From: Bacteroidales bacterium
GTDB taxonomy: Bacteria; Bacteroidota; Bacteroidia; Bacteroidales; UBA10428
Length of the DNA: 64,000 bases
Assembly (NCBI GenBank): GCA_016934055.1
Contig: JAFGTR010000008.1
Location: 69,435-133,434 of the forward strand
Direction of reading: 5' to 3'
How positions within the stretch are numbered: the first letter of the stretch is position 1; each line of letters begins with the position of its first letter. The position numbers and the translations under genes were made by a program. This document shows, one piece after another, positions 18,146-56,041 of the stretch. A model generated the notes under the pieces. That model had not been told where the DNA came from. It did no database searches and was given only the letters and a program-made list of their open reading frames with translations.

Positions 18146-18182
18146 GTTTTATTAAATTTGTATTAAAAAAGCAATGGATAGA

Positions 18183-20120: not shown

Positions 20121-20294
20121 ACGATAGAATAATTATTTAAGTTCATTATAACGATTGTTCACTTTCTCAAGGAAAGCCAGTTAATGACCATAATCTGACC
20201 ACTTACCGGTCAATCATTACTTCTTACCGATTTTTCATAGTTTCATGGTTTGATTTTTTCAAACTTTCACCTGTTAATTCAAAAAAACAGTGCT

Positions 20295-36857: not shown

Positions 36858-36869
36858 GATTTCTGAAAA

Positions 36870-37877: not shown

Positions 37878-37907
37878 ACCATTAAATGGATAATACAATC
37901 TCTTTCA

Positions 37908-38543
37908 CTATTGTTTAAATGTAGCAATTTTCTGTCTGATTTCCCGGGCCGCCATCATAGGATCATCAGCTGAAACAATGGCTGACACAACAGCAATGCC
38001 ATCTGCTCCTGCCCTCACTATATCAACTGCATTTCGTGCGTTGATGCCCCCAATGGCCACGATGCAATGCCTGGAAAAAGAGGCTATCTCACGAACGCCC
38101 TCAATCCCCAATGCAATAGAAAGTTCCGGTTTAGTATCCGTTACAAATACAGGGGATAAACCTATATAATCCACATCCAGTTTATTGGCCTCCCTGGCCT
38201 GGGAAATACTTTCCACGGAAAGTCCGATAATTTTGTCCTTTCCCAGGATTTTTCTTGCAATAACATATGGTATGTCGTGCTGACCGATATGGAGGCCCTC
38301 TGCATCAGCTGCAAGTGCAATATCAAGCCGGTCATTGATGATCAGGGGAACATGAAAGGGGGCAAGTATTCTCTTTATCAGCACAGCAAGATTAAAAAAT
38401 TCCAATGTGGGACAGTCCTTTTCTCTCAGCTGTACCATGGTGACACCACCTTTAACAGCCTGTTCCACAACATTTTCAATCGGGCGACCTTTTGCAAGTG
38501 CTCTGTCAGTGACCAGATAAAGTAAGGGATTACACCTGTTCAT
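37908..38543 (-). CDS. thiE: Thiamine-phosphate synthase
   Basis: LYLVTDR...GVTMVQLREK...LIINDRLDIALAADAEGLHIGQHD...GLSPVF.T.TK...AIGGI is the ThiE pattern. Confidence 0.92.
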   Translation of the reverse strand: MNRCNPLLYLVTDRALAKGRPIENVVEQAVKGGVTMVQLREKDCPTLEFFNLAVLIKRILAPFHVPLIINDRLDIALAADAEGLHIGQHDIPYVIARKILGKDKIIGLSVESISQAREANKLDVDYIGLSPVFVTDTKPELSIALGIEGVREIASFSRHCIVAIGGINARNAVDIVRAGADGIAVVSAIVSADDPMMAAREIRQKIATFKQ

Positions 38544-39340
38544 GATACTGCTTTAAGCAGATTTGTAATATCCTTATCAGACAACTTATACAATTCATCA
38601 AGAAAATACGCCTGCATGGTACCCGGGCCTGCTGATCTTTTTGCTGCAAGTTCACCGGCAATACCCATCACTGCCATAGCATGGGCTGATGACATTATAA
38701 AATCGCAATTAACAGCAACAAATGCACCAACAAGAGCTGTAGCGGTACAACCCATTCCTGTGACCTTTCCCATTAAAGGTGAACCATTCTGTACCTGTAT
38801 TACGGATTTATTATCAACAACATAATCCACCGGACCACTGATGATGATTATGGCACCTGTATCTTTTGCAAGAGTCGTGGCTCCATGAACGGCCGACTCT
38901 GAGGAAGCTACACTATCAACACCTTTTGTATCACTTTGTTTACAGGTCAGTGCCATAATCTCGGATGCATTGCCCCGAATCACATCGGGTTTGCATTCCC
39001 GGATAATCTGAAGGCTTGTCTGCGTACGGTATGCAGTAGCACCCGCACCTACCGGGTCAAGAACAACAGGGATATTCTTTTTTTTGGCTGCCAATCCGGC
39101 TTTTAACATAGCTTCAACCCACGATGGGCTCAAAGTGCCTATGTTTATCACCAGAGATGAAGCAATCTTCACCATATCCTCAACCTCTTCAACAGCGTGG
39201 GCCATCACCGGCGAGGCGCCAATTGCCAATAATGCATTGGCTGTATTGTTCATTACAACAGAGTTCGTTATATTATGAACCAGCGGAGAGCGGGAACGAA
39301 CTTCTTTCAGATCCTTAATAACAGATTCTTTTGATATCAT
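38540..39340 (-). CDS. thiM: Hydroxyethylthiazole kinase
   Basis: PLVHNITNSVVMNNTANALLAIGASPVMA...VLDPVGAGAT.YR...MGCTATALVGAF is the ThiM pattern. Confidence 0.92.
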   Translation of the reverse strand: MISKESVIKDLKEVRSRSPLVHNITNSVVMNNTANALLAIGASPVMAHAVEEVEDMVKIASSLVINIGTLSPSWVEAMLKAGLAAKKKNIPVVLDPVGAGATAYRTQTSLQIIRECKPDVIRGNASEIMALTCKQSDTKGVDSVASSESAVHGATTLAKDTGAIIIISGPVDYVVDNKSVIQVQNGSPLMGKVTGMGCTATALVGAFVAVNCDFIMSSAHAMAVMGIAGELAAKRSAGPGTMQAYFLDELYKLSDKDITNLLKAVS

Positions 39341-39343
39341 GGT

Positions 39344-40048
39344 TTATTTGTTTTTAAAAGCACATATAGCAACATAGTCACCGCAATCAAAACCTTCCAT
39401 GGGTTCTTCAATTGTATTGTCTGAATAAACAGGGTGCCTGGTAAGAGTTTGGGCAAAGGCAAAATCGCTGAAACCAGCTTCTTTTAACATATTGACTTTT
39501 TCGGTTGTAGTCCTCCAGTTGGCTGCTTTTACAAATTCAATCGGATAGGGATCCTTTGGCTGAACACCTTTAAGCAAAGGATGATCCCAGGTACCGAGTA
39601 CCTTGGCCAGGTTATAAAGCAGGGCATATGAACTTTCTTTGGGGACATCGATAACCACAATCCGGCCTCCCTTTCGTAAAGCCTGGCAGGTTTTATTGAA
39701 AGCTTTCTGCAAATCATTTATATAACTTGGTGTGCCATTAAAAAGTATGGCATCATATTGGTTCAGCCCAAAATCACCGTCTTCAGCGGTTTCTATTCTC
39801 ACGGTCATACCACGTTTTTCTGCAATTTCTGCCATTGATTTTGAAGGCTCAATACCATATTTTACAGTAATATTAAATTCCTGTTGAAGAAGCATTTCAA
39901 ATAATCCGCTTCCGCAACCTACCGATAAAGCATCACCGGTATTTTTCAGAAAATGTGCCACCAGTTTTAGTTCAGAATACAAAACATTTTTGTTTTTCAG
40001 GAACCATGCGTCGTATTTTTCTGCATACTGATCAAAATTGTCGTTCAT
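39344..40048 (-). CDS. Class I SAM-dependent methyltransferase (first gene after the TPP riboswitch)
   Basis: It has YDAWF...ALSVGCGSGLFEMLL (SAM motif I) and ILFNGTPSYINDLQKAFNKTCQALRKGGRIVV (post-I/II). Confidence 0.75.
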   Translation of the reverse strand: MNDNFDQYAEKYDAWFLKNKNVLYSELKLVAHFLKNTGDALSVGCGSGLFEMLLQQEFNITVKYGIEPSKSMAEIAEKRGMTVRIETAEDGDFGLNQYDAILFNGTPSYINDLQKAFNKTCQALRKGGRIVVIDVPKESSYALLYNLAKVLGTWDHPLLKGVQPKDPYPIEFVKAANWRTTTEKVNMLKEAGFSDFAFAQTLTRHPVYSDNTIEEPMEGFDCGDYVAICAFKNK

Positions 40049-40060
40049 AGTAGTATAAAT

Positions 40061-40210
40061 AAAAAAACCGCTTCGTTGCGAACGAAACGGTATACAGGTT
40101 ATTGATTATATTCAAAATACAATATACCATTTTCCTCCGCTGTTATTATACATATCAGGTTCAGGGGTATATTCTCAGCTTGTTTTCTGCAAGCACCCCC
40201 AACGGTATTG
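40061..40210 (-). promoter_or_regulatory. TPP (THI-box) riboswitch with terminator expression platform
   Basis: The minus strand reads AUACCguuGGGGGUGCuugcagaaaacaagCUGAGAauauACCCcugaACCUGAUauguaUAAUaaCAGCGgAGGAAAauGGUAU (aptamer 40124..40208). It is followed by the hairpin accguuucguucgcaacgaagcggu (40068..40090) and U7 (40061..40067), 12 nt before the ATG at 40048. Confidence 0.9.
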
Positions 40211-42831: not shown

Positions 42832-44169
42832 TTATCTATCTTTAATACACCGGACCGAAAATCCGTATGATTTCGGAAATGTATTCCATCGCCCGCATAA
42901 ATGAGAATTAATGTCGAGACATCTTCTCCAGGCAAAGTCTCCATCATATGCGGTAGAAGTCCACATGTATTCAAACATGCCGGCCAGGCTGTAAATACCA
43001 CCTGTCGAACGTCTGCCTGATAATTGAGCATTGTAACCTGAGCTGCCCCCAACGATAAGTTTAGTGCCAACACTGTCGCCCCGCCATGTGTTAACCATAT
43101 CAGCTTCTTCCCTTGTCATGCCTAAAAACATTTCCAGCTCTTTATACTCTTCATCGGAAGGAACGTGCCATCCACAGGGACAAATCCCCTGTGCCTGCTC
43201 AACCGTTGAATTATTCATTGCCACATCCCATGTATACAATCTTCCATATACCGGAACATAATTCGTATCATCATTATAGGTATAACTGATAACAGGCTCA
43301 CCGGAAGGATTATGGGTTACCCTCAGGTTTTCCTTCATCCAGGTTTGCTCACCTATCTTAACAATGGCATAAGTATTACCGTCAATATCGGTTAACCTGT
43401 CCGACAGATTCACGGTAATCACCACGGTCTGATCCTCCTGGTCGGTTACAGTCAATACATAAGTACCGGCTCCAAGATCAAACAGATCTTCCTCATTGGA
43501 GCCGTTTGACCATGAACAGGTATAGGGAGGATACCCATTGCTGATGGTAACATCAATGTTTCCATCTTTTAATCCTGTTTCTGAAGGTGAAACAACCGTA
43601 TATTTAACAATAAGCTCACCCTGATCCGGCTGTGATATGAATATACTGTCAGTAAGTGATGAATTCACCGCATCAGTCACGGTAAGATAATACATCCCTG
43701 CTTCCAGGCCTTTTATTTCACTCTCTGAAGAACCATTTGACCATTTGTACCGGTATGGTTCAACACCTCCGGTAACAGTGGCTGAAGCTGATCCGTCGGC
43801 TCCACCGTAGAATGACACATTATTTCCCGTGATCACAAGAACAAGGGTTTCCGGTGCAGGCTGGCTTACAAAAAAAGTGTCTGTCTGTGAACTTTTATTA
43901 TTATCAGTAACTGTTATAATATAAGTCCCGGCAGAAAGGCTGTCGATATCCTCGGTTGTCTTACCGCCTGTCCATAAAAATGAATAGGGTGGTATCCCGC
44001 CTGAAACCGTTAAATCTACGCTCCCGTCATGACCTCCGTATTCCGTTACATCTTCAATTGAAGCACTTAATACAAGAGGGTCAGGGAAAGTTTCTCCGGG
44101 CTCTTCCCTGCAATGCTGCAATGAAAAGAAAAGAATACCATATAAAGCAATATAAAATACTCTTTTCAT
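42832..44169 (-). CDS. Secreted protein: 3 Cys-less SprB-like repeats plus a Fibrobacter succinogenes major paralogous (FISUMP) domain
   Basis: The repeats read GG.PPY...W(T/S).G...E....L.AG.Y..TVTD. The C-terminus DIDGNTYAIVKIGEQTWMKENLRV...YGRLYTWDVAM...CPCGWHVPSDEEYKELEMFLG...GFSVRCIKD matches the FISUMP pattern. Confidence 0.75.
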   Translation of the reverse strand: MKRVFYIALYGILFFSLQHCREEPGETFPDPLVLSASIEDVTEYGGHDGSVDLTVSGGIPPYSFLWTGGKTTEDIDSLSAGTYIITVTDNNKSSQTDTFFVSQPAPETLVLVITGNNVSFYGGADGSASATVTGGVEPYRYKWSNGSSESEIKGLEAGMYYLTVTDAVNSSLTDSIFISQPDQGELIVKYTVVSPSETGLKDGNIDVTISNGYPPYTCSWSNGSNEEDLFDLGAGTYVLTVTDQEDQTVVITVNLSDRLTDIDGNTYAIVKIGEQTWMKENLRVTHNPSGEPVISYTYNDDTNYVPVYGRLYTWDVAMNNSTVEQAQGICPCGWHVPSDEEYKELEMFLGMTREEADMVNTWRGDSVGTKLIVGGSSGYNAQLSGRRSTGGIYSLAGMFEYMWTSTAYDGDFAWRRCLDINSHLCGRWNTFPKSYGFSVRCIKDR

Positions 44170-44215: not shown

Positions 44216-44707
44216 TTAAAAATCAGCATCAAACCGATCATCGGACTTCATCTTTAACAATTTATGCTTCACAGCGGATAACCAACCTGTTTTAATATCC
44301 TCAATTTTTTCGAAATCAGGGACATAAGGTTTTATATCCAATAGAGGTGTATTATTCACCATATCAACATTTTCGATATATAAAATGTTTTTCTCCACGC
44401 TGCAAAGCCTCACCACAGACAAGCCTATGCTATTCGGTCTTCTTGGCGCTCTTGTGGAAAACAAACCTCTTTTTTTATCATCTAAAAAAGGTCTGACCTC
44501 TAGTTGAAAACCTTTTGATAAATGAAACTGATATAAAAGAATGATGTGAGAAAAGCCATCGAGGTCTTTAAGACCATCAGCATATTCCGGGTAGACTTCA
44601 ACCATTCCTTTTATTCCTTTTCCTGCAGGAGGCTGTATTGGCATGTCTCCGGTATTATCATACGGTGTATGAATAACACCTATGGGTTTGAAGACTATTC
44701 CATTCAT
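44216..44707 (-). CDS. trmO: tRNA (t6A37) methyltransferase TrmO/TsaA family
   Basis: FKPIGVIHTPY...PIQP...G.VEVYPEYADGLKDLDGFSHIILLYQFH...RGLFSTRAPRRPNSIGLSVVRL...VDMVNNTPLLDIKPYVP is the YaeB/TsaA pattern. Confidence 0.85.
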   Translation of the reverse strand: MNGIVFKPIGVIHTPYDNTGDMPIQPPAGKGIKGMVEVYPEYADGLKDLDGFSHIILLYQFHLSKGFQLEVRPFLDDKKRGLFSTRAPRRPNSIGLSVVRLCSVEKNILYIENVDMVNNTPLLDIKPYVPDFEKIEDIKTGWLSAVKHKLLKMKSDDRFDADF

Positions 44708-44757: not shown

Positions 44758-46122
44758 TTATCTTTCCCTGTTCTGAATCTGGTAAATTAACTCTTCAGCT
44801 GCCCTGATAATGGGATTATTAACCGGAGAAGCCGTTAATAAAGGATGTGTGCCAATCTGATAAGAAACCAGTTCAAAAACTGTAATAGATTTCTGGATAG
44901 CCATGCTGATGATATTGATGATCTCGCCAACTGATTTTCCGCCCCAGGCTTCACCGCCCAGAATACTACCATCAACAGGCGAAGCATAGAGTTTCACCGT
45001 CAGGTTTGAAGTATCTGATAAAGTTCCGGGGTGCCTGTCAGGCGATGAGAACTTAGCAGAGATGACATTAGCCTGTGCTTCAATGGCACTCTTTTCATTC
45101 GCCCCTGAAGCCGCCATGGCAAGTTTGTTAATTTCTGTAGAAAATACACCAAGAGTACCCGTAATGCATTTTTTAATGCGAATACCAAAAATATTATGGC
45201 CCAATACACGTGCTTCGGCAGTTGCAGTTGAAGCCAGTTTTATCAGGTCGCTCCGCCCTGTCAGGAAGCCAAAAGTCTGAGCACAGTCACCCACAGCACT
45301 GACGTCTTGAACGGATGTGCGTCCGTAACTGTCAACATGAATATCGCCGTATCTGTTTAATTCAAGACCGGTTTCCTGTGCAAGTCGTGTATTAGCCTTA
45401 TAACCTATTGAAAAAATAACAGCATCAGCTGCAATCTTATTCCCGTCAGCAAGCAATACACTGTTTACCTTATTATCCACCCCGATTATCTCTTTGACGC
45501 GTGTTGAAGTCAGAACATTGACACCTGTCTTCTTAAGCTCTTCCGTGGCTATCTGGCTTAATTCAGGTGAAAAAGCCTTAGAGAAACAGGTTGGTTCACT
45601 TTCAACCAGGGTTACATTTAATTGAGCTGTTGCCAGCTGCTCAGCAACTTCAGCCCCGATGAAGCCACCCCCTACAATAACAATACTTTTAAAGCCACTT
45701 ACCCTTAAAGCCAATTCCTTTATATAATTATAGCTTTTTTTGATATAAAAGATGTTCTGAAGATTATAGCCTGGTATGAAATCAGGAATCTGGGGGAAGG
45801 ACCCTGTGGCAAAAACAAGCTTTTCATAACCAATTTCTCCTCCGGTGTTTAAAACAACAAGCTTTTGCTTTTTATCCACTTTAGCCACTGTATCAACAAG
45901 AACTTCTCCGCCTAAGTCAATAAAAGGCTTTGGACCCATCTTATTCTTTTCGGCATCCCCACCAAGCAAATGAAAAACATAAGGAATCCCACACGGCACA
46001 AGACCGTCTGCCTCTTCTTTAACCATCAATACTTCTTTAGCATTAAAGAACTTCTTAATTGTCATTCCGGTTACAATGGCCGCAGGGCCTCCTCCGATAA
46101 TCACTACATCATACTTTTTCAT
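44758..46122 (-). CDS. FAD-dependent pyridine nucleotide-disulfide oxidoreductase (NADH oxidase/CoADR-like, single Cys)
   Basis: It has MKKYDVVIIGGGPAA and the putative redox Cys in LVPCGIPYVF. A second dinucleotide motif (IVIVGGGFIGAEVAEQL) and GDC follow. Confidence 0.8.
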   Translation of the reverse strand: MKKYDVVIIGGGPAAIVTGMTIKKFFNAKEVLMVKEEADGLVPCGIPYVFHLLGGDAEKNKMGPKPFIDLGGEVLVDTVAKVDKKQKLVVLNTGGEIGYEKLVFATGSFPQIPDFIPGYNLQNIFYIKKSYNYIKELALRVSGFKSIVIVGGGFIGAEVAEQLATAQLNVTLVESEPTCFSKAFSPELSQIATEELKKTGVNVLTSTRVKEIIGVDNKVNSVLLADGNKIAADAVIFSIGYKANTRLAQETGLELNRYGDIHVDSYGRTSVQDVSAVGDCAQTFGFLTGRSDLIKLASTATAEARVLGHNIFGIRIKKCITGTLGVFSTEINKLAMAASGANEKSAIEAQANVISAKFSSPDRHPGTLSDTSNLTVKLYASPVDGSILGGEAWGGKSVGEIINIISMAIQKSITVFELVSYQIGTHPLLTASPVNNPIIRAAEELIYQIQNRER

Positions 46123-46171: not shown

Positions 46172-46543
46172 TCATTGCTCCTTAATTTCAAACATATTAC
46201 CGCTCCTGTCCCAGATAAAATACGTTTGAGAACTCATTCCTTTCCTGCTTACGGCTTTATAACCGGCACTGATGGCCCTATGGTATAATGCTTCAGATTG
46301 CCGGTATTTCAGACAAACATGCGAGAACACCTTTCTTTCTTCCAATGGGGTTATAAACATCTCAAATTCCAGATCATTATTCCCCATGACATAAACATCC
46401 ACCTCCTCCGGCACATTAAATACTGTTTCAGAAACATTCTCATTTATTGAAAAAGTGCGTAAGATTGTAAAATGTAAAACATTTTTGTAAAAAGCATCAA
46501 TTTCTTCGGGATCATTTATTGCAAATGCAACATGTTGCAGCAT
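46172..46543 (-). CDS. VOC/glyoxalase family protein
   Basis: It is 123 aa with MLQHVAFAINDPEEIDAFYKNVL and paired beta-alpha-beta-beta-beta modules, including H and E metal-ligand positions (HVAF, HVCL, FEIKE). Confidence 0.65.
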   Translation of the reverse strand: MLQHVAFAINDPEEIDAFYKNVLHFTILRTFSINENVSETVFNVPEEVDVYVMGNNDLEFEMFITPLEERKVFSHVCLKYRQSEALYHRAISAGYKAVSRKGMSSQTYFIWDRSGNMFEIKEQ

Positions 46544-46574: not shown

Positions 46575-46594
46575 AATTGAACTTCTGTTCATTT
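46575..46594. promoter_or_regulatory. Palindromic operator, site 3 (aattgaac-ttct-gttcattt)
   Basis: It lies in the 88-bp divergent region between the VOC gene (start 46543, -) and the ICMT-like gene (start 46632, +). Confidence 0.7.
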
Positions 46595-46631: not shown

Positions 46632-47153
46632 ATGTTGCTGTTTATACTATTATGTCTTATCTGTTTAACCAGTTATTACCTGCATACACTCTGGCATTAC
46701 CGGATCTATAAAGGAGTTAATTTTGAACAACGGGGTAAACTTTTCAGCTTATACACCCATTTCATAGTTTTTATCGGTTATTTCGCTTTTGGCATGATGA
46801 TCTTTACCGATCCTCTCAAAATAAGTATTGACATTATCCTCAGAATTGCCGGTCTGATCATAGGTTTATCAGGTATTGTGATTGGTGTTGTTGCTACAAT
46901 TCAAAAAAAAGGCTATACCGATACGGATCAATTAATTACAAAAGGAATATATGCCAGGTTACGCAATCCGATGTATCTCGGGATTATTTTTATTCATATT
47001 GGTCTGCCTTTATTCTTCGGGAGCCTGATAACCCTTTTATCCGCTTTTGTCTGGATACCCATGATTATATTATGGAAAATCTGGGAAGAAAAGCACCTTG
47101 AAAACAAATATGGAAAGCAGTACAACACTTATAAAAAACAAACACTTTTTTAG
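46632..47153 (+). CDS. Isoprenylcysteine carboxyl methyltransferase (ICMT/PEMT) family membrane protein
   Basis: It has 4-5 TM segments and the C-terminal motif LITKGIYARLRNPMYLGIIFIHIG...WEEKHLENKYGKQY. Confidence 0.78.
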   Translation: MLLFILLCLICLTSYYLHTLWHYRIYKGVNFEQRGKLFSLYTHFIVFIGYFAFGMMIFTDPLKISIDIILRIAGLIIGLSGIVIGVVATIQKKGYTDTDQLITKGIYARLRNPMYLGIIFIHIGLPLFFGSLITLLSAFVWIPMIILWKIWEEKHLENKYGKQYNTYKKQTLF

Positions 47154-47260: not shown

Positions 47261-47280
47261 AAATGAACAAATGTTCATTT
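47261..47280. promoter_or_regulatory. Palindromic operator, site 4 (aaatgaac-aaat-gttcattt)
   Basis: This is a perfect 8+8 inverted repeat, 33 nt upstream of the ATG at 47313. Confidence 0.75.
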
Positions 47281-47312: not shown

Positions 47313-48095
47313 ATGATGAAAATAACAGTTCTTACCGATAACACACCCGGAAAGCATACCGAAGCCGAACACGGTTTATCATATCTTATTGAATTCGATG
47401 GTAAAAGACTGCTTTTTGATACAGGGCAAAGCAATTTATTTATAAAGAATGCTGAAGTCATGGGTGTTGATGTGACAAACATTGATATGATCATTCTCAG
47501 CCACGGTCATTTCGACCATGGAGACGGATTACCTTATCTTTCCGGGGGGAAATTATTATGTCATCCGGGATGTTTTGTCAAACGCTACCGGAAAATTGAC
47601 CATTCCTATATCGGATTGGTAAATACGCAGGATGAACTTAAAGAAAAATATGAACTTATAACATCAGCTTCACCTTTTTATATAACGGAAAAGATTATAT
47701 TCCTTGGTGAAATCCCCCGCCTGACTGATTTCGAGTCGAAGCATACTTCCTTTGTTTTTGAAGACGGCAGTCCTGATTTTGTGATGGATGACAGTGCTAT
47801 AGCTATGATCCTTGATAAAGGCATATTTGTTGTCACCGGTTGCGGACATGCAGGAATTGTGAACACGCTTGAACATGCCAGAATAGTGACAGAAATAAAA
47901 AAACTTTATGGTGTCATGGGTGGTTTTCATTTGAAGGCAGCAGACAGGCAAACAGAAGAAACAATCCGTTACCTCAAAGACAGCGGAATAACATATGTTT
48001 ATCCCTCACATTGTACAGTTGAACCGGCCCTTTCTTTGTTTCATAAGAACTTCCCGGCTAAACAGGTGAAGACAGGCGATTTTTTCAGTTTTTAA
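47313..48095 (+). CDS. MBL-fold metallo-hydrolase
   Basis: It has KITVLTDNT...EHGLSYLIEFDGKRLLFDTGQS and ILSHGHFDHGDGL (HxHxDH), then TGCGHAG. Confidence 0.8.
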   Translation: MMKITVLTDNTPGKHTEAEHGLSYLIEFDGKRLLFDTGQSNLFIKNAEVMGVDVTNIDMIILSHGHFDHGDGLPYLSGGKLLCHPGCFVKRYRKIDHSYIGLVNTQDELKEKYELITSASPFYITEKIIFLGEIPRLTDFESKHTSFVFEDGSPDFVMDDSAIAMILDKGIFVVTGCGHAGIVNTLEHARIVTEIKKLYGVMGGFHLKAADRQTEETIRYLKDSGITYVYPSHCTVEPALSLFHKNFPAKQVKTGDFFSF

Positions 48096-48105
48096 CAATC
48101 TTTCC

Positions 48106-49131
48106 ATGGAAGAAATTTTTGTTTCAACACTTAAACAGTCATTAATGATAACAGTTTTTGTTCTGTTTATGATGGTTGTAATTGAATACATCAACGTGCA
48201 GAGCAAAAACCTGTGGGCTGAAAAGTTAAGGCAATCTCCATTTTTACAAATAATAATAGCAGCCTTGCTGGGCATAACACCAGGTTGTATGGGCGCATTC
48301 ACTGTGGTTTCGTTGTACACTCACCGTATGATGGGACTCGCAGGTCTGGTTACCGTAATGATTGCAACATCGGGCGATGAAGCCTTTGTAATGTTTGCGC
48401 TTTTCCCGGGGAAAGCTCTTTTATTAAATGTTGTTTTGCTGACAGTAGCGATAGTGTCAGGATGGCTGGTACACTTATTTAACAGGAAAAGCAATATTAA
48501 AAAAGAGGTACAGGGTTATGTTATACACGAACAGGAATACTGCAAATGCTTTACCAGACATTTAATCGTTCCGCAACTGAAAGCTATTTCATTTGAAAGA
48601 GCTATACTGTTGCTGTTTATTCTTTTGTTTACAGTAATGCTGCTGGCAGGAATCATCGGAAACAGTGAATGGGACTGGAAAAAAATAACATTCCTTTCAG
48701 GCAGCCTTTTCCTTTTATTTGTATTTATTACCGTTCCTGAACATTTCTTAAAAGAACATTTATATGAGCATATCCTTAAAAAACATTTGTTGAGATTATT
48801 TTTGTGGACCTGGGGAGCATTTATTGCATTGCATTTTATCCAAACAAACATAGAATTAAGTAACCTGTTACAAAACAATTCGAGTTTGGTATTACTTTCA
48901 GCTGTTTTGCTCGGCCTTATCCCCGAATCAGGTCCGCATTTGTTGTTTGTCACATTGTTTTCACAAAGCCTTTTGCCTTTCAGCATATTGCTGGCAAATT
49001 CGATTGTACAGGATGGTCATGGTATGTTGCCTTTGCTGGCAGAATCACGTAAAGATTTTGTCAGGGTAAAGGCCATAAACATGCTTGTTGGCCTGCTGAT
49101 TGGATTTATACTTTTACAATTCGGACTGTAA
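48106..49131 (+). CDS. Polytopic membrane protein, putative 10-TM heavy-metal exporter (ArsP_2-like) family
   Basis: It has about 10 TM segments in two halves. GITPGCMGAF and GLIPESGPHLLFVTLF resemble the paired motifs of that family. This is from memory and tentative. Confidence 0.5.
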   Translation: MEEIFVSTLKQSLMITVFVLFMMVVIEYINVQSKNLWAEKLRQSPFLQIIIAALLGITPGCMGAFTVVSLYTHRMMGLAGLVTVMIATSGDEAFVMFALFPGKALLLNVVLLTVAIVSGWLVHLFNRKSNIKKEVQGYVIHEQEYCKCFTRHLIVPQLKAISFERAILLLFILLFTVMLLAGIIGNSEWDWKKITFLSGSLFLLFVFITVPEHFLKEHLYEHILKKHLLRLFLWTWGAFIALHFIQTNIELSNLLQNNSSLVLLSAVLLGLIPESGPHLLFVTLFSQSLLPFSILLANSIVQDGHGMLPLLAESRKDFVRVKAINMLVGLLIGFILLQFGL

Positions 49132-49611: not shown

Positions 49612-49631
49612 AAATGAACCTATGTTCATTT
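49612..49631. promoter_or_regulatory. Palindromic operator, site 5 (aaatgaac-ctat-gttcattt)
   Basis: This is a perfect 8+8 inverted repeat. It is followed by a consensus TAnnTTTG box (tatctttg, 49639..49646) and the ATG at 49673. Confidence 0.75.
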
Positions 49632-49672
49632 ATATTATTATCTTTGTATCTTCAAAATTTAAAATAATTCAT

Positions 49673-49987
49673 ATGATGATTGCTATCCCGGCATCGGCGA
49701 AAAATCCGGATGCCCTAATTGACGAACGATTTGCACGTTGTCCGTTTTTTTGTTTTTACAATACAAAAACCATGGACTTTGACTTTAAAGAGAATACAAA
49801 AAAGGATGCTATGGAAGGCGTTGGACCGCAGGTTGCGGAATTTCTGGCGAATAACGGAATAATGGCTGTATATACGTGCGAAGTAGGACCAAAAGCCAAA
49901 ATGATACTGGAGAAACTCAACATTACAATCAACATCGTCAAGTCAAACCAGACTGTAAAACAAATAACAACATTATTAAATAACTAA
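49673..49987 (+). CDS. NifB/NifX-family (dinitrogenase FeMo-cofactor biosynthesis domain) protein, copy 1
   Basis: MMIAIPASAKNPDALIDERFARCPFFCFYN...GPQVAEFLANNGIMAVYTCEVGPKAKMILEKLNI is the NifX-like fold pattern. I chose an internal start downstream of the operator. Confidence 0.75.
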   Translation: MMIAIPASAKNPDALIDERFARCPFFCFYNTKTMDFDFKENTKKDAMEGVGPQVAEFLANNGIMAVYTCEVGPKAKMILEKLNITINIVKSNQTVKQITTLLNN

Positions 49988-49999
49988 AAATTAATTATT

Positions 50000-50341
50000 A
50001 TGCCACAAGGAGATCGTTCCGGACCCATGGGACAAGGTCCCAGAACCGGAAGAGCAAAGGGTTTTTGCTCAGGATATGATACACCAGGTTATGCAAGAGG
50101 ATTTGGAGGTGGAATGGGCAGAGGCTTTGGATATGACCGGGGCATGGGAAGAGGCCGCGGATATGGCAGAGGGTGGAATATTGGACAAGCCTTTTCCGGA
50201 TTTTTCCACGGATTTCCCTGGACACAGTCCATGAGTAAAAATGATGAAATTGCAATGCTGAAATCGCAGGCAGAAGAGCTTAAACTCTCTCAGAAAAATA
50301 TCGAAAAAAGGCTCAGCGAATTGGAAAAAGAAGGAGAATAG
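50000..50341 (+). CDS. DUF5320 family protein (G/R-rich N-terminus, coiled-coil C-terminus)
   Basis: MPQGDRSGPMGQGPRTGRAKGFCSGY...GMGRGRGYGRG is followed by LKSQAEELKLSQKNIEKRLSELEKE. Confidence 0.75.
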   Translation: MPQGDRSGPMGQGPRTGRAKGFCSGYDTPGYARGFGGGMGRGFGYDRGMGRGRGYGRGWNIGQAFSGFFHGFPWTQSMSKNDEIAMLKSQAEELKLSQKNIEKRLSELEKEGE

Positions 50342-50352
50342 GGAAAAGTATT

Positions 50353-50394
50353 CAGTTAACAGTAAACGGTAAACAGTAAAAAGTAAATGGTTAT
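50353..50394. repeat. Six tandem degenerate heptamers (CAGTAAA-like)
   Basis: The units read cagttaa cagtaaa cggtaaa cagtaaa aagtaaa tggttat. The array starts 12 nt after the DUF5320 stop and belongs to the same family as 3934..4017. Confidence 0.75.
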
Positions 50395-50498
50395 CATTAA
50401 GCAACCGAAACTTTAGCGTTATCGGGTAAAGATGTTGTTACTTGGATTAAGAGGGTAACACAGAAAATTATTATTTTTGAAAAAAATATCATAATTCA

Positions 50499-50837
50499 AT
50501 GAAGCATATCATAGCCATTCCTACGAACAATAATTGTTTATGCCAGCATTTCGGGCATTGTGAGAAATTTGCCATTTATCATGCGGAAGATTATCAAATA
50601 AAAGAAGAATCTTACCTTGATCCACCGGCACATGAACCTGGCGTTTTACCTGCATGGCTTGCATCAAAAGGCGTAACCCATGTAATCTCAGGGGGAATGG
50701 GACACAGAGCTATTTCTCTTTTCAATCAGCAGAACATAGAGGTATATACCGGAGTAGAACCAAAACCAGCCAAAATAATAGCAGAAGAGTTTTTAAACAA
50801 TAAGCTTATTACAGGCACAAATGCCTGCGATCATTAG
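50499..50837 (+). CDS. NifB/NifX-family protein, copy 2
   Basis: MKHIIAIPTNNNCLCQHFGHCEKFAIY...LPAWLASKGVTHVISGGMGHRAISLFNQQNIEVYTG is the NifX-like fold pattern. Confidence 0.78.
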   Translation: MKHIIAIPTNNNCLCQHFGHCEKFAIYHAEDYQIKEESYLDPPAHEPGVLPAWLASKGVTHVISGGMGHRAISLFNQQNIEVYTGVEPKPAKIIAEEFLNNKLITGTNACDH

Positions 50838-50848
50838 TAAGAAAAAAG

Positions 50849-51730
50849 ATGCACAGCGAATGTGTCAGTTGTTTCCTTGTTCAGGCAGACAGAATGCTGG
50901 AAAAGCACCGGATCAGAAATGATGTGGCGAAAGATATAATACTGCGATTTCGTTTATTTGTCGATGACCACAAAGATAATAATCTTACAGCACCGGAAGC
51001 TTCTTGTTTTTTACATCGTTTGATAAAAAAAGCATCGGGAACGAATGACCTCTATAAAAAGGAAAAAAAGCATTATAACAAATTATTATTGAACCTTGAA
51101 GAGGATATCCGGCGTGTCATACACAACTCGGAGAATCCATTTCAGACCGCCTTACGATACGCTTTGGCGGGAAATATTATTGATTTTGGCCCACCAGGTC
51201 AATTTGATGTATTCAAGGCATTGTCATCGGCTGTTTCAAAAGATCCGGCTATTGACCATTCAGGTTTACTGCAAAAAGCATTAAAAAAAGCAGCCAAGGT
51301 ATTGTACCTGGGTGACAATGCCGGTGAAATTGTGCTTGATAAGTTGCTTGTTGAGACTATCAGGCATCCCAACCTGAAATACGCCGTACGCGGGGGAAAC
51401 ATTATCAATGATATTACCATGGAAGATGCCAGAGCTGTTGGTATGACAGAACTTACCACGGTGATTTCAAACGGCTACAGTGCGCCTTCTACATTGGTTA
51501 ACCGTTGCTCGCAGGCATTCAGAAAAATATACAGCGAAGCCGATCTCATCATTTCAAAAGGTCAAGGTAATCTGGAAGGACTAATCGACGAAACCGGAAA
51601 GAAGATTTTTTTCCTGCTCATGATCAAATGCAATGTTATGGCCAAAATAACAGGTGCAAACCAGGGTGATGTTGTCATTCTGTATAACCAAAAGATGTCC
51701 CTGCCAAAAAGGAAGACTGAGAGGTTGTAA
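50849..51730 (+). CDS. DUF89 (ARMT1-like damage-control phosphatase) family protein
   Basis: It has an N-terminal ECVSC, then ALAGNIIDFG, LYLGDNAGEIVLDKLL, ISKGQGNLEGL and the layout typical of DUF89. Confidence 0.7.
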   Translation: MHSECVSCFLVQADRMLEKHRIRNDVAKDIILRFRLFVDDHKDNNLTAPEASCFLHRLIKKASGTNDLYKKEKKHYNKLLLNLEEDIRRVIHNSENPFQTALRYALAGNIIDFGPPGQFDVFKALSSAVSKDPAIDHSGLLQKALKKAAKVLYLGDNAGEIVLDKLLVETIRHPNLKYAVRGGNIINDITMEDARAVGMTELTTVISNGYSAPSTLVNRCSQAFRKIYSEADLIISKGQGNLEGLIDETGKKIFFLLMIKCNVMAKITGANQGDVVILYNQKMSLPKRKTERL

Positions 51731-52048
51731 TGATTGCTGCGTCCATCAAAGCTTACTGTGGTTAATAGAGTCAGGCAGTGAAGGGAAAAAGGGTTGTTTG
51801 AAAACAAATTAAGTCCCGGAGGGGTGGCATGTTGTTAGCCCAGGGCGGTAGCCCCGGGTAACACAGGGAGTGTGGATACTACTGCAGGCACAATCTGACC
51901 AAAAGAATTAACTGCATATGCAGCGAAATGAAACAGGCCTTCCTCCAAAGGTAACAGATCATTTTACATATCAAAAGAATATGGATGAACAAGAATGATT
52001 ATACAAAAAAGACAAAATCGCTTTATCATTAAATAGCCCTGTCAACAA

Positions 52049-52909
52049 ATGAAAATTGCCATTACAAGCGGTAAGGGGGGAACGGGAAAAACAACGGTCA
52101 GCACAGGCCTTTTTCATGTTCTTACAAAATATTATAAATATCATGTACAGTTGCTTGATTGTGATGTGGAAGAACCTGATTGCCATATTTTTATTAAATC
52201 AGTTAAACATGATGAACAACCGGTAACCATTTCTGTACCTGAGATTAAAACCGACCAGTGTACCTTTTGCGGAAAATGCAAAGCTGTTTGTGCATTCAAT
52301 GCAATTGTTATGATGCCATCAGCGAAATTTATAGAAGTTGTGGAAGATATGTGTCATGGTTGCGGCGCATGTTCATATGTTTGCAAAGACAATGCCATTG
52401 TTGAACACAACCGGATAATTGGGACCATCTCGTATTTCGATTATTTTGCCAGAGATGAATTTATTGAAGGCCGCATGAATGTCGGATCCGCATTGCAGAC
52501 AAGGGTAATCAGGGAAACGATAAACCATGCAAAAAAAGCAGGCATAATCCTTTTTGATTCTCCGCCCGGAACTTCCTGTCCCGTAATAGCGACAGTTTCC
52601 AAAGCCGATTATGTTATCCTGGTTACTGAGCCAACGCCTTTTGGTCTTCATGACCTGAAGCTTATGGTTGAGACTGTTAAACAACTGAATAAAAATCGCG
52701 GGATTGTAATCAACAAAGCCGGATTGAATTATAGTCCCCTGTATGATTATATAAAAAAGGAAAATATTGCCCTTCTGGGCGAGATCCCGTTTAAAAAAGA
52801 ATATGCCAAAGCATATTCCCTCGGGAAATTATTACCTGAATATGATCCGGAACTAAGAAATACATTTCAAAGTATTATTAAACAGGTCGTAAATGGAGAA
52901 ACCGTTTGA
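52049..52909 (+). CDS. MinD/ParA-type P-loop ATPase with inserted 2x[4Fe-4S] ferredoxin domain, copy 1
   Basis: It has the deviant Walker A (KIAITSGKGGTGKTTVS) and the ferredoxin motifs CTFCGKCKAVC and CHGCGACSYVC. Confidence 0.85.
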   Translation: MKIAITSGKGGTGKTTVSTGLFHVLTKYYKYHVQLLDCDVEEPDCHIFIKSVKHDEQPVTISVPEIKTDQCTFCGKCKAVCAFNAIVMMPSAKFIEVVEDMCHGCGACSYVCKDNAIVEHNRIIGTISYFDYFARDEFIEGRMNVGSALQTRVIRETINHAKKAGIILFDSPPGTSCPVIATVSKADYVILVTEPTPFGLHDLKLMVETVKQLNKNRGIVINKAGLNYSPLYDYIKKENIALLGEIPFKKEYAKAYSLGKLLPEYDPELRNTFQSIIKQVVNGETV

Positions 52910-53792
52910 AATAGTAATACTGAGCGGAAAGGGGGGGACGGGGAAAACAAGTATAACCGCATCCTTTGCTGCCCTTGCAGAGAATGCAGTATTTGCTGAT
53001 TGTGATGTAGATGCTGCCGACCTGCATCTTTTGTTATCACCTGTGATAGTCCATCAGGAAAAATTTGCCAGTGGTGCAAAAGCAGAAATTGACAATGAAA
53101 AATGCACTGCATGCGGATTATGTCTGGAATTATGCCGCTTTAACGCCATTGAAGCAGAAGATGAAATATACACAATTGACGAATATGCCTGTGAGGGATG
53201 TGGTTTATGTGTTGAAGCATGTCCTTACGCAGCCATCACCATCGAAAAATATGAGAATAACAACATCTATTTTTCAAATTGTCGTTTTGGCCCTATGATC
53301 TATGGGAAATTAGGCATAGCTGAAGAAAATTCAGGGAAACTGGTTTCTCAGATAAGACAATACACAAAAGAAACCGCATTAAAGAACAAATCAGGGCTTA
53401 TCATTACTGACGGGCCTCCGGGTATTGGCTGTCCTGCTATTTCTTCCGTCACAGGTGCAGATATTGTGATTGCCATAACAGAACCCACATTATCGGGATG
53501 GCATGACCTGCAGCGTCTTATGGAAATGATCGGACGTTTTCATACGCCCGTTCAGGTCATCATCAACAAATATGATCTGAATGAGGACATGACAAACACA
53601 ATTGAAAACAGGCTAAAAAGCCAAAATATTCCAGTAATCGGCAAAATACCATATGACGATGCGATGGTTTATGCCTTACTGGAGAGTAAAACTATAATTG
53701 AAACTGAACCGCAGAGTGAGATTACCCATGAATTGAATAATATATGGAAAATATTAACATCAATTATTTATGAATCCAAAAAAAGTATTTGA
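52893..53792 (+). CDS. MinD/ParA-type P-loop ATPase with inserted 2x[4Fe-4S] ferredoxin domain, copy 2
   Basis: It has IVILSGKGGTGKTSITA, CTACGLCLELC and CEGCGLCVEAC. It overlaps copy 1 by 17 nt. Confidence 0.85.
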   Translation: MEKPFEIVILSGKGGTGKTSITASFAALAENAVFADCDVDAADLHLLLSPVIVHQEKFASGAKAEIDNEKCTACGLCLELCRFNAIEAEDEIYTIDEYACEGCGLCVEACPYAAITIEKYENNNIYFSNCRFGPMIYGKLGIAEENSGKLVSQIRQYTKETALKNKSGLIITDGPPGIGCPAISSVTGADIVIAITEPTLSGWHDLQRLMEMIGRFHTPVQVIINKYDLNEDMTNTIENRLKSQNIPVIGKIPYDDAMVYALLESKTIIETEPQSEITHELNNIWKILTSIIYESKKSI

Positions 53793-54585
53793 AAAAATTG
53801 AACTCCCCAACGTAAAGAATATTATCGTTATAGCTTCGGGGAAAGGCGGGGTAGGAAAATCAACTGTCTCAGCCAATCTGGCAGTTTCACTTGCGCGACA
53901 AGGTTTTAAGACTGCCCTCGTGGATGCGGATCTGTACGGGCCTTCAATTCCAATGATGTTTGGTGTACAAAACGAGAGACCTGTCGGTGGTATGAAAGAT
54001 GGAAAAGAAGTGATCATCCCCATTGAAAAATATGGTGTTAAAATGGTATCTATCGGTTTTTTTATATCTGCAGGTCAATCACTCATTTGGCGGGGCCCCA
54101 TGGCATCAAACGGATTAACACAATTGTTCAGGGATACTGACTGGGGAGAGACAGATTATATGATTGTAGACTTTCCTCCGGGTACCGGTGATATACAGAT
54201 CACCACTGTTCAGAAGTTGAATCTTTCAGGAGCTGTTATTGTTACAACGCCACAGGAAGTTGCAATCTCAGATGCACGTAAAGCAGCGTCCATGTTCATA
54301 AATCCCGATCTTAACGTGCCTTTGCTGGGCATTGTTGAAAATATGTCATGGTTTACACCTGCCAATCATCCGGATGAGAAATATTTTATTTTTGGGCAAG
54401 GTGGTGGAGAAAAACTAACACAAGAGTTCAATACAAAACTCCTTGGTCAGATACCTCTGATCATGGAAATTGGCGAAGGTTCAGATAAAGGAATGACAGT
54501 CTACAACCAATCCAATAAATCAATGATAGACGCTTTTGATACTTTGTCACAATCAATCTGTGAAATATTAAGTGTAAAGGCATGA
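53770..54585 (+). CDS. Mrp/NBP35/ApbC-family ATPase (lacks the CxxC bridging-cluster motif)
   Basis: It has IVIASGKGGVGKSTVSANLAVSLARQG, DADLYGPS and IVDFPPGTGD. Where ApbC has ENMS.F.CP.CG, this protein has ENMSWFTPANHPDEKYFIFG with no Cys. It overlaps the previous gene by 23 nt. Confidence 0.85.
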   Translation: MNPKKVFEKIELPNVKNIIVIASGKGGVGKSTVSANLAVSLARQGFKTALVDADLYGPSIPMMFGVQNERPVGGMKDGKEVIIPIEKYGVKMVSIGFFISAGQSLIWRGPMASNGLTQLFRDTDWGETDYMIVDFPPGTGDIQITTVQKLNLSGAVIVTTPQEVAISDARKAASMFINPDLNVPLLGIVENMSWFTPANHPDEKYFIFGQGGGEKLTQEFNTKLLGQIPLIMEIGEGSDKGMTVYNQSNKSMIDAFDTLSQSICEILSVKA

Positions 54586-55520
54586 TCGCATTCGGTCCCA
54601 TACCCTCACGCAGGCTTGGCTTAAGTCTGGGTATCAACAATATTGTTTCACATAAGGTATGCTCATATAATTGTGTTTATTGCCAGATTGGCGATACGGG
54701 GAAAAGACTTTTAAAAAGAGATGTGTTTTATGAACCCGGAAAGATGTTGGAAGCCATTGAATCTCATTTAAACAAGCTCGATAAAGAACATATTCCTGAT
54801 TATCTGACATTTGTAGCTAATGGCGAACCTACTCTCGATATTAATTTGGGAAAAGAAATACAGTTGTTAAAGAAGTTCAACATTCCGGTAGCTGTAATTT
54901 CAAATGCTTCGCATATGGATGATCCAGAAGTACGGAAAGATCTGATGAAAGCCGACTGGGTTTCGGTTAAAGTTGATACCGTGTCAGAAGACATTTGGAA
55001 AAAAATTAACAGGCCATTGGACGGGATAGGATTAAACAACATCCTTCATGGGATAATTGTCTTTGCTGCGGAATACAACGGAAAGCTTCATACTGAAACC
55101 ATGCTGATAAAAGGGCTTAATGATGCTCCCGAGGTTATGAAGGATACAGCATCTTTTATCGGTTTATTAAAACCAAAAAAAGCATATCTTTCGATACCGA
55201 CGAGACCACCTGCCGTAAAAGAAGTTAAACCTATACCTGAAGAGCGGATTGCTGAAGCCTGGCAAATATATCAACAGGAAGGCATCAAAACAGAATTATT
55301 AACGGGCTTTGAAGGAACCAATACAGGTTTCACAGGCAATGTCTTTGAAGATATCCTGAATATTGCAGCAGTGCATCCTTTGCGTGAAGACACAATGGCT
55401 GAGTTACTGAAACAGGACAAAGCCGATGAAAGTGTTGTAAAATCACTTATTAAGCAGGGGTTGATAAAGAAATCAACCTATAATGGCAAAACATATTATA
55501 TAAGAAAATATCATTTTTAA
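54582..55520 (+). CDS. Radical SAM protein
   Basis: GPIPSRRLGLSLGINNIVSHKVCSYNCVYCQ contains the CX3CX2C motif, and the GEPTL motif follows. The start overlaps the mrp stop (ATGA). Confidence 0.85.
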   Translation: MIAFGPIPSRRLGLSLGINNIVSHKVCSYNCVYCQIGDTGKRLLKRDVFYEPGKMLEAIESHLNKLDKEHIPDYLTFVANGEPTLDINLGKEIQLLKKFNIPVAVISNASHMDDPEVRKDLMKADWVSVKVDTVSEDIWKKINRPLDGIGLNNILHGIIVFAAEYNGKLHTETMLIKGLNDAPEVMKDTASFIGLLKPKKAYLSIPTRPPAVKEVKPIPEERIAEAWQIYQQEGIKTELLTGFEGTNTGFTGNVFEDILNIAAVHPLREDTMAELLKQDKADESVVKSLIKQGLIKKSTYNGKTYYIRKYHF

Positions 55521-55525
55521 CAACA

Positions 55526-56041
55526 ATGATCCTGCCCATTATAAAATACGGTTCACCTTTGCTTCGCAAAAAAGCATTTGATATTGATAAAGGTGATTCT
55601 TTCAGTCTTATGGCTGAAAATATGGCGTCAACACTCAAAAAATATGAAGGAATCGGTCTTGCCGGACCACAAGTAGGGGCAATAAAAAATGTATTCATTA
55701 TTGATACAACCCCTATGAAAGAAAGGGGAACAGCAATAGTGGAAAAAGTCTATTATAACCCGGTAATACTCAACTGGAGTGAAAACAGTATTTATTATAA
55801 CGAAGGATGCCTTAGTATTCCCGGCATAAATGAAGATGTACTGCGCCCTGATAAAATAGAAGTGCGATACAGGGATGAAAACTTCGACTGGCGTGAAGAA
55901 GTACTGGATGGCCTGATTGCCCGTATTTTCCAACATGAATATGACCATCTGCAAGGAATATTGTTTATTGATAAGATAGCCCCTATCAGAAAAAAACTAT
56001 TGACAGGCAAACTGAAAGTACTGGCAAAAGAAAATAAATAA
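55526..56041 (+). CDS. def: Peptide deformylase
   Basis: It has the three PDF motifs: GIGLAGPQVG, EGCLSIPG and QHEYDHLQG. Confidence 0.92.
   Translation: MILPIIKYGSPLLRKKAFDIDKGDSFSLMAENMASTLKKYEGIGLAGPQVGAIKNVFIIDTTPMKERGTAIVEKVYYNPVILNWSENSIYYNEGCLSIPGINEDVLRPDKIEVRYRDENFDWREEVLDGLIARIFQHEYDHLQGILFIDKIAPIRKKLLTGKLKVLAKENK

Follow-up and report, generated by a model that had tools for sequence, protein, structure and literature searches.

A predicted Bacteroidales form of the Desulfovibrio ORP system and a palindromic operator probably bound by DUF134

In 2011 Fievet reportedly described the ORP (orange protein) clusters of Desulfovibrio vulgaris Hildenborough and D. alaskensis, orp3-orp4-orp5 plus orp7-orp8-orp9. 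The Orp proteins form a physical complex, MrpORP hands [4Fe-4S] clusters to Orp3/Orp4 in vitro, and expression is redox dependent, requiring a very low redox potential (PMC6345978, PMC8359166). Orp3 and Orp4 are paralogues with two [4Fe-4S] ferredoxin motifs each, the NifX-like Orp5 and Orp8 are other components, and the Di-Nase domain has the conserved motifs CxHFGHCE, proline-rich TPPPHxPGxxP and C-terminal CDH (PMC6345978). The CxxC of the P-loop domain of Desulfovibrio MrpORP binds the transferable [4Fe-4S] cluster, and the orange protein holds a non-covalent Mo-Cu-S cluster. Very many strict anaerobes have kept the ORP system, which has been studied only in Desulfovibrio, where it is under sigma-54 control. 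Here we describe a nine-gene operon (operon region 49612-56041) in a stretch of 64,000 nucleotides (nt) from a Bacteroidales bacterium, the whole of which is called the window below, and compare it with this system and with a second one from archaea.

The second system is IssA (SipA) of Pyrococcus furiosus, which stores iron and sulfur as anionic thioferrate and consists of an IPR003731 domain and a tail whose 70 residues include 15 Gly, 14 aromatic and 7 cationic ones and a single Cys, the isoelectric point (pI) of the tail being 10.7 (PMC5524996).

The operon region contains nine open reading frames (ORFs), all co-directional on the + strand. Their Pfam families are, in order, Nitro_FeMo-Co, DUF5320, Nitro_FeMo-Co, ARMT1/DUF89, CbiA+Fer4 (twice), ParA/NUBPL (Mrp), Radical_SAM and Pep_deformylase, each exceeding its curated cut-off:

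49673-49987, + strand: NifX-like carrier 1 (NifX1), a single-domain Nitro_FeMo-Co protein of the ORP/Orp8 and IssA type (Pfam, 58.6 bits)
50000-50341, + strand: DUF5320 protein (Pfam, 82.6 bits)
50499-50837, + strand: stand-alone Di-Nase domain, the second NifX-like protein, 112 amino acids (NCBIfam MrpORP model, 117.4 bits)
50849-51730, + strand: DUF89/ARMT1-like metal-dependent phosphatase, accessory (Pfam, 211 bits)
52049-52909, + strand: MinD-type ATPase A (MinDA) with a 2x[4Fe-4S] ferredoxin insert, Orp3/Orp4-like (Pfam CbiA + Fer4)
52893-53792, + strand: MinD-type ATPase B (MinDB), its paralogue with the same ferredoxin insert (Pfam CbiA + Fer4)
53770-54585, + strand: Mrp/NBP35-type ATPase without CxxC (Pfam ParA, 297 bits)
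54582-55520, + strand: radical SAM enzyme, COG0731-like, accessory (Pfam, 51.8 bits)
55526-56041, + strand: peptide deformylase (def), accessory, with intact EGCLS and HEYDH motifs (Pfam, 152 bits; NCBIfam, 153.5 bits against a cut-off of 125)

An initial annotation, made by a model from the letters alone, had read the region as nine co-directional genes of these families, preceded by an operator, with overlaps of 4-23 nt between 52049 and 55520, two CxxCxxCxxxC motifs in each MinD-type ATPase and an Mrp without CxxC. All of this was borne out by the ORF coordinates and by the Pfam searches it had called for. The overlaps measure 17, 23 and 4 nt, the ferredoxin motifs could be located by residue (C71/74/77/81 and C102/105/108/112 in MinDA), Mrp has FTPANHP at the position of the CPxCG found in orthologues from other phyla, and the operator is an exact palindrome, described below with its frequency in the window.

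The link to the ORP system came from the Mrp and Di-Nase genes. The Di-Nase protein matches positions 265-365 of the 365-position NCBIfam MrpORP model (117.4 bits, E = 8e-34) and the Mrp protein positions 3-249 (252 bits), both falling short of the equivalog cut-off of 450. The Di-Nase motifs read CQHFGHCE, DPPAHEPGVLP and terminal CDH, and a homologue search with this protein gave stand-alone proteins only among the matches listed. Among loci retrieved via alignment of the MinD-ferredoxin proteins, seven have a fused Mrp-Di-Nase gene beside the orthologues of MinDA and MinDB; six of the fused proteins were scored and reached 499-518 bits on the MrpORP equivalog model. These seven loci tie the window cluster directly to the ORP system and show the Mrp and Di-Nase genes of the window to be the two halves of MrpORP, which makes MrpORP a separable protein pair. 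When compared with PDB sequences, NifX1 matched TM1290 (1rdu, 1.5e-9), the ORP of D. gigas (2wfb, 1.1e-7) and MTH1175 (1eo1, 1.3e-7); the similarity to D. gigas ORP is modest (35 bits), TM1290 and MTH1175 being about equally good. A locus from Desulfobacter (L082; L numbers denote the related loci introduced below) reads MinDA-MinDB-NifX-NifX without an adjacent enhancer-binding protein (EBP). From sequence we identify the nine-gene operon as the predicted Bacteroidales form of the ORP system. The explanation that we consider best overall, and rather probable, is that this ORP form is switched by DUF134 and handles metal-sulfur clusters.

The window proteins also occur on contigs of a metagenome-assembled Bacteroidales genome. 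When one genome per species was searched with an alignment of both MinD paralogues, 478 matches were confirmed. The best 80 loci were analysed by searching the window proteins against their six-frame ORFs; 41 of them, with at least 5 kb on each side, are referred to as full loci. The 80 loci are from Bacteroidota, Desulfobacterota, Dehalococcoidia, Planctomycetota, Ignavibacteria, Omnitrophota, Zixibacteria, Acidobacteriota, Verrucomicrobiota, Bacillota and Bathyarchaeia, and in 78 of them MinDA and MinDB are paired. The full loci contain:

MinDA + MinDB: 41 of 41
NifX1-type gene: 41 of 41
Di-Nase type: 34 of 41
Mrp: 25 of 41
DUF134: 24 of 41
DUF5320: 17 of 41
MBL (metallo-beta-lactamase fold): 14 of 41
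DUF89: 13 of 41
radical SAM: 10 of 41
def: 5 of 41, all but one from Bacteroidota
ArsP_2: 5 of 41
FeoB: 4 of 41
ArsR: 3 of 41

The common order is DUF134, NifX, (DUF5320), Di-Nase, (DUF89), MinDA, MinDB, (Mrp), (radical SAM), (def). The cluster is a conserved module with variable accessories, among them def, DUF89 and the radical SAM gene, and the locus and its relatives define a minimal core of DUF134, NifX-like genes and the MinD-ferredoxin pair. That sets of DUF134, NifX-like and MinD-ferredoxin genes recur in anaerobes had been stated in the initial annotation, which also proposed a study of neighbourhood conservation; the genes are indeed strongly syntenic across phyla, so that a lack of synteny in other genomes, named there as a ground for refutation, clearly does not apply.

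The same annotation had presented the operon as a candidate uncharacterised metallocofactor assembly system resembling the complex-cofactor maturation pathways of nitrogenase, CODH and F430. The genes do encode a conserved and apparently jointly regulated group of proteins for metal-sulfur clusters, but not an uncharacterised one, given the homology to the Desulfovibrio ORP cluster. Dedicated maturation of a complex cofactor for one enzyme, with the radical SAM protein performing the chemistry and the NifH-like ATPases acting as insertases, would agree with the component types (NifX-fold carriers, SIMIBI ATPases close in fold to NifH, HypB and Cfd1, and a radical SAM protein with NifB among its fold matches). 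However, no candidate client enzyme is conserved beside the cluster in the 80 loci, the core is just DUF134, the NifX-like genes and the MinD pair, and the accessory radical SAM gene, in 10 of the full loci only, encodes a single-cluster protein with generic fold matches. We regard such a pathway as unlikely, and the parallel with nitrogenase, CODH and F430 found no support. In agreement with the earlier reading, the scanned window ORFs (all but a 2204-residue ORF and some of the small ones) did not include a structural gene for nitrogenase, hydrogenase or CODH.

The radical SAM protein has three Cys only (C27/C31/C34, CxxxCxxC), for a single cluster, and a winged-helix-like C-terminal part, and it shows the partial TIM-barrel fold of the radical SAM superfamily. 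With its AlphaFold2 (AF2) model (predicted local distance difference test, pLDDT, 81), Foldseek returned PFL-AE, TYW1, NifB and viperin with probability 1.0 and about equally well (query-based TM score, TMq, ~0.55), and because these four match about equally no substrate can be inferred. The protein had no sequence match in the PDB, all its NCBIfam matches were far under the cut-offs, and no subfamily could be assigned.

The Mrp protein contains a deviant Walker A motif (GKGGVGKS, residues 24-31), a Walker B motif and a single Cys (residue 264). Because WFTPxxHP[DE]E is conserved in 12 of 12 Bacteroidota orthologues, the loss of CxxC in Bacteroidota is not decay; orthologues from other phyla retain CPxCG. 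CxxC was lost a second time, independently, in the Mrp of Dehalococcoidia and relatives, which reads YLYVPEIDKK or LLLPETGKK (L038, L051, L052, L055, L058, L060, L068 and L081). At least two independent losses call into question the simple model in which Mrp hands over a [4Fe-4S] cluster to Orp3/4.

These findings bear on whether the proteins are generic housekeeping Fe-S carriers with delivery of the Mrp/ApbC type. The Mrp protein does score 278.6 bits on the NCBIfam ApbC model (under the cut-off), and MrpORP of Desulfovibrio transfers clusters to aconitase in vitro. But the Mrp of the window and all Bacteroidota orthologues are without the CxxC needed for a bridging cluster, a dedicated operator is common to the operon and to metal transport genes, the synteny with DUF134 is specific and conserved, and expression in Desulfovibrio is conditional on a low redox potential. 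A housekeeping function is therefore very improbable in our view.

MinDA and MinDB are 31% identical; each has the eight invariant ferredoxin Cys and a deviant Walker A motif, and an extra Cys in PPGxxCP is invariant in both. In the AF2 model of MinDA (pLDDT 90.8) the ferredoxin domain is inserted at about residues 50-130, and Foldseek found MinD, Cfd1, NifH and HypB at TMq 0.54-0.60, the closest being MinD (1hyq, 4v03). MinDA is thus modelled as a SIMIBI ATPase similar to MinD, Cfd1, NifH and HypB. The MinD-ferredoxin protein has thousands of relatives; no solved structure with the MinDA architecture including the ferredoxin insert was found by PDB sequence search and Foldseek.

The nearness to MinD recalls the role in cell division that was first proposed for the ORP system of Desulfovibrio, for which morphological defects of an orpR mutant and a polar localisation of MrpORP have been published. 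MinD-like positioning or cell division is very unlikely here, however, since none of the loci has a linked division gene, the partners in the regulon have to do with metals or sulfur, and the ferredoxin insert together with the NifX-fold partners indicates redox or cluster chemistry.

The palindrome TGAAC-N4-GTTCA occurs exactly five times in the window as compared with 0.07 expected, and 0 of 100 shuffles reached five. All five copies are intergenic and exact matches:

14995-15008: operator copy 1 (TGAACAATTGTTCA), 14 nt before the ArsR-family gene
18129-18142: operator copy 2, ahead of DUF134 and of the small lipoprotein-like ORF that precedes it
46578-46591: operator copy 3, in the intergenic region between the divergent glyoxalase and methyltransferase genes
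47264-47277: operator copy 4, 36 nt before the MBL-fold gene
49615-49628: operator copy 5, heading the nine-gene operon ~45 nt before the NifX1 start at 49673

The position of copy 4 is also occupied in L004, L010 and L011, and an equivalent of copy 5 is present ~60 nt before NifX1 in these three loci and in L026; altogether 13 distinct loci among the related ones from Bacteroidota have the exact palindrome ahead of DUF134, NifX1 or MBL. For NifX1 there are two start candidates, 49622 and 49673. Because the ATG at 49622 falls within the palindrome it is probably not the real start, and the true start is probably 49673.

Promoters of Bacteroides have the -7 element TAnnTTTG. Four of the operators are followed by such a box within 2-17 nt, and the fifth has one 58 nt upstream of it: TAAATTTG 10 nt downstream of copy 2 and again, on the minus strand, 2 nt after copy 3, and TATCTTTG 10 nt downstream of copy 5. 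The operators are situated between or just after promoter elements, and therefore DUF134 probably represses. The gene of the predicted regulator is located upstream in the window:

18431-18844, + strand: DUF134 protein, predicted regulator (Pfam DUF134, 84 bits, and a Sigma70_r4-like helix-turn-helix)

We scanned the 160 nt before every DUF134 gene in the loci (41 regions) and found 30 of the 41 genes preceded by a perfect palindrome TGNNN-N4-NNNCA, where shuffles gave 0.46 expected (background 0.018 per 166 nt). The half-sites vary by lineage (TGAGA 13, TGAAC 10, TGAGC 5), and the DUF134 proteins most like that of the window pair with TGAAC. There are two Bacteroidota subtypes of DUF134, one with TGAGA-N4-TCTCA (L006/L008/L019-L037) and one with TGAAC-N4-GTTCA (L013-L015/L029/L043); L043 has one gene of each. 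From position and co-occurrence, DUF134 (18431-18844) is probably an autoregulated factor that binds all five palindromes. Its C-terminal CxxC...CxxC, of which the four Cys are conserved across phyla, may be a metal or Fe-S sensor. With DUF134 and the 16-base-pair palindrome (ATGAAC-N4-GTTCAT), a testable regulator and its operator are at hand.

Control by sigma-54 was considered and rejected: TGGCAC-N5-TTGCW sites numbered 41 versus 36.9 expected and none was well placed. An EBP was not found among the scanned neighbours. A search of the literature turned up nothing on what DUF134 or DUF5320 does; an apparent match to DUF134 in a Bacteroidetes iron-stimulon paper turned out to be DUF1349.

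The regulon that we infer from the five operators consists of arsR-feoA-feoB, the lipoprotein-like ORF with DUF134, a glyoxalase/CoADR-like/TrmO unit, a PEMT-like methyltransferase, MBL with ArsP_2, and the nine-gene operon. Its members outside the operon are, besides DUF134:

15022-15387, + strand: ArsR/SmtB-family metalloregulator, first of the ArsR-feoA-feoB unit (Pfam HTH_5; NCBIfam HTH_metalloreg, 86.7 bits against a cut-off of 55)
15437-15682, + strand: feoA (read from sequence)
15679-17610, + strand: feoB, ferrous iron uptake (FeoB_N, Gate and FeoB_C domains)
18174-18314: small ORF between operator 2 and DUF134, with signal peptide, lipobox (MDRMKKIITLLLTVMLFACFFLSTGC...) and Cys-rich tail PCPCEKQH
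44216-44707, - strand: TrmO (Pfam/NCBIfam)
44758-46122, - strand: CoADR/NSR-like flavoprotein (Pfam/NCBIfam)
46172-46543, - strand: glyoxalase-fold protein (Pfam/NCBIfam)
46632-47153, + strand: PEMT/ICMT-like membrane methyltransferase (Pfam PEMT), in 1 of the 80 loci
47313-48095, + strand: MBL-fold hydrolase (Pfam)
48106-49131, + strand: ArsP_2 permease with ten transmembrane segments (Pfam; NCBIfam 'arsenic efflux protein', 131.9 bits against a cut-off of 100)

The small ORF may be co-transcribed with DUF134. The putative place of the glyoxalase/CoADR-like/TrmO unit in the regulon was deduced from operator 3 alone; L004 has the same arrangement of the three genes. The methyltransferase at 46632-47153 is weakly similar to the methanethiol S-methyltransferase MddA. 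L013 has an uninterrupted series of ferritin, DUF134, glyoxalase, MBL and ORP genes, and L043 one of ArsR-FeoB-DUF134-NifX; because these loci keep the genes together, the arrangement in the window, where DUF134 is 31 kb away from the operon, seems to have come about when a single ancestral locus was split.

Downstream of DUF134 a 158-residue protein without family match (19040-19516) is followed by a Dps-like ferritin (19653-20120). The former is conserved divergently beside DUF134 in L033 (248 bits), and in L013 the ferritin adjoins DUF134. Both may belong to the regulon, with no operator copy directly preceding either. Further on lies a SAM-dependent methyltransferase (20250-20936), weakly similar to ArsM and not conserved in the related loci.

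A regulon for resistance to arsenic or other metalloids, with the ORP-like genes as passengers, would account for the ArsR/SmtB regulator, for ArsP_2, which passes the NCBIfam cut-off for arsenic efflux, for the weakly ArsM-like methyltransferase and for the glyoxalase-fold protein. However, ArsP_2 is linked in 5 and ArsR in 3 of the 41 full loci, arsC, arsB, acr3 and arsA were not found, and the ArsR gene heads the feoAB unit. As the main explanation we ruled it out on the synteny counts, and we give it next to no credit.

The two halves of the regulon are separated by a 26-kb segment, in which 31943-34417 (- strand) encodes an 824-residue fusion of CoA-disulfide reductase, rhodanese, TusA and DsrE, a persulfide/sulfur-trafficking flavoprotein. 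The window also contains a TonB-dependent receptor (21856-24447), the 2204-residue ORF (25063-31677, - strand), a thiamine salvage/biosynthesis operon (35398-40048, - strand; ThiM, ThiE, ThiD, TenA-like and an AIR-synthase-related gene) with a thiamine pyrophosphate (TPP) riboswitch ahead of it (40115-40210, - strand; 63.5 bits, exceeding the gathering score), and, at 42832-44169, a protein that has SprB repeats and a Fib_succ_major domain.

Within the operon, the DUF89 and MinDA genes are separated by a unique spacer of 318 nt (51731-52048) with a GC-richer core; the orthologous gap in L004 is 5 nt. The spacer had no Rfam match, did not fold better than shuffles (z = -1.18) and was not repeated elsewhere, be it in the window or in the related loci. 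An internal promoter may lie in it, or it may be what is left of an insertion. Rfam at the gathering threshold gave in the window the TPP riboswitch only, and a permissive scan of 49-56.3 kb gave nothing credible.

As to function, our best guess for the ORP-type operon is the handling of iron-sulfide or metal-sulfur clusters. The context of iron and sulfur genes, namely feoAB, the nearby Dps-like ferritin and the CoADR/NSR-like flavoprotein, points to this. In transcriptome and proteome studies of Thermococcales growing on elemental sulfur (S0), genes annotated with the same families are named as some of the most strongly induced.

The DUF5320 protein has a cationic N-terminal part rich in Gly, Arg and aromatic residues, with the conserved motif MPxGDxTGPxGxGPxTGR..C, and a C-terminal coiled coil. 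Its residues 1-75 include 24 G, 10 R/K, 13 F/W/Y and 1 C (pI 10.9), a composition close to that of the IssA tail, and its gene adjoins a NifX1-type gene, in either order, in 19 of the 31 loci having DUF5320. This raises the question whether the NifX carrier and DUF5320 are a split IssA for the storage or detoxification of iron sulfide, holding an anionic thioferrate-like iron-sulfide polymer or similar species that the ATPases load or mobilise. Such an assignment competes with the ORP explanation with respect to function, not to family identity. It would also fit the match of NifX1 to MTH1175 (1.3e-7), which was treated as IssA-type by Vaccaro et al., and the parallel of feoAB and the CoADR/NSR-like flavoprotein of the inferred regulon, and of the nearby Dps-like ferritin, with the S0/iron stimulon that induces IssA. 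Yet the likeness of DUF5320 to the IssA tail is one of composition, not of homology, the conserved N-terminal motif and the coiled coil have not been described for IssA, and DUF5320 is absent from 24 of the 41 full loci. Among the best 150 of 3618 DUF5320 representatives there was no fusion with NifX, the longer ones being tandem repeats or N-terminal extensions. A function of the IssA type is possible, and we put it forward tentatively.

For the ORP system of the window we propose the following mechanism. DUF134 would repress the regulon via the five palindromes, with expression at low redox potential and in the presence of plentiful iron and sulfide. Once expressed, MinDA and MinDB would form an ATP-dependent heterodimer that loads, reduces or moves metal-sulfur species. 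These would be bound, without covalent attachment, to the NifX-fold carriers and to the cationic DUF5320, and Mrp and Di-Nase would assist the heterodimer. In effect, clusters of iron sulfide or heterometal sulfide would be handled in a setting that is very reducing and rich in sulfide. A more far-reaching proposal is that DUF134 is the sensor-regulator of an anaerobe-wide iron-sulfide regulon with lineage-varying half-site, that NifX carrier plus DUF5320 are a two-gene analogue of IssA, and that the MinD pair and the Cys-less Mrp load or mobilise the metal sulfide; as a whole we consider this doubtful.

If this more far-reaching proposal is true, there would be a concrete function for the ORP complex outside Desulfovibrio. 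The regulon links the ORP-type system to ferrous iron uptake and to sulfur/CoA-disulfide chemistry and indicates the iron, sulfide and redox conditions to try, and both DUF134 and DUF5320 gain testable roles.

Several points weigh against the explanation that we prefer. The binding of DUF134 to the palindromes was deduced from position and co-occurrence alone, and the ArsR-family protein (15022-15387), also present, could bind the palindrome; its gene is linked in 3 of the 41 full loci only. Because of the 318-nt spacer the nine genes may be transcribed as two units. For Orp3/4/5/7/8, homology was deduced from the MrpORP profile, the sequence of the ORP crystal structure and published descriptions; the likeness of the 'CobQ' of Thermococcales to the MinD-ferredoxin pair was taken from annotation text and is correspondingly tentative. 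Three differences from Desulfovibrio point in the same direction: MrpORP is split here into two genes 2.9 kb apart, its ATPase half has WFTPxxHP[DE]E and no CxxC, and a palindromic operator with, probably, DUF134 takes the place of sigma-54, OrpR and integration host factor (IHF).

Comparison with other known systems gives the following picture. With the Mrp/NBP35/ApbC carriers the Mrp of the window has in common the deviant Walker A, the Walker B and the overall domain (Pfam ParA, 297 bits), but not the cluster-defining CxxC, the MIP18/DUF59 N-terminus and the Nbp35-type Cys domain. The MinD pair resembles NifH, CooC, HypB and Cfd1 in the predicted fold, the deviant Walker A of the dimer type and the metal-cluster context; it differs by the two-cluster ferredoxin insert and the invariant Cys of PPGxxCP, and the inter-subunit cluster ligands of the NifH type were not identified in it. 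IssA is approached by the NifX-fold (IPR003731) domain of NifX1, by the tail-like cationic segment with one Cys on the neighbouring DUF5320, and by the grouping of feoAB, Mrp and NSR-like genes with it in a single stimulon. Here, however, the tail is a separate protein for which no homology to the IssA tail was shown, NifX1 (104 residues) is tailless, and the described IssA system is without MinD-ferredoxin ATPases.

With the ORP system of Desulfovibrio the operon shares paired paralogous MinD-type ATPases with two [4Fe-4S] ferredoxin motifs each, as in the published description, single-domain Nitro_FeMo-Co proteins (two of PF02579 here, NifX1 being similar to D. gigas ORP), an Mrp/NBP35 ATPase and a Di-Nase domain with CxHFGHCE, PPxHxPG and CDH, the restriction to anaerobes and a dedicated transcriptional control. 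In contrast to Desulfovibrio, the genes are on one strand in a single operon to which DUF5320, DUF89, radical SAM and def have been added, and the operator also fronts feoAB, MBL/ArsP_2 and the CoADR-like unit. Relative to the known ORP clusters the split and Cys-less MrpORP, the DUF134/palindrome switch and the extra genes are new, whereas the type of system itself is known.

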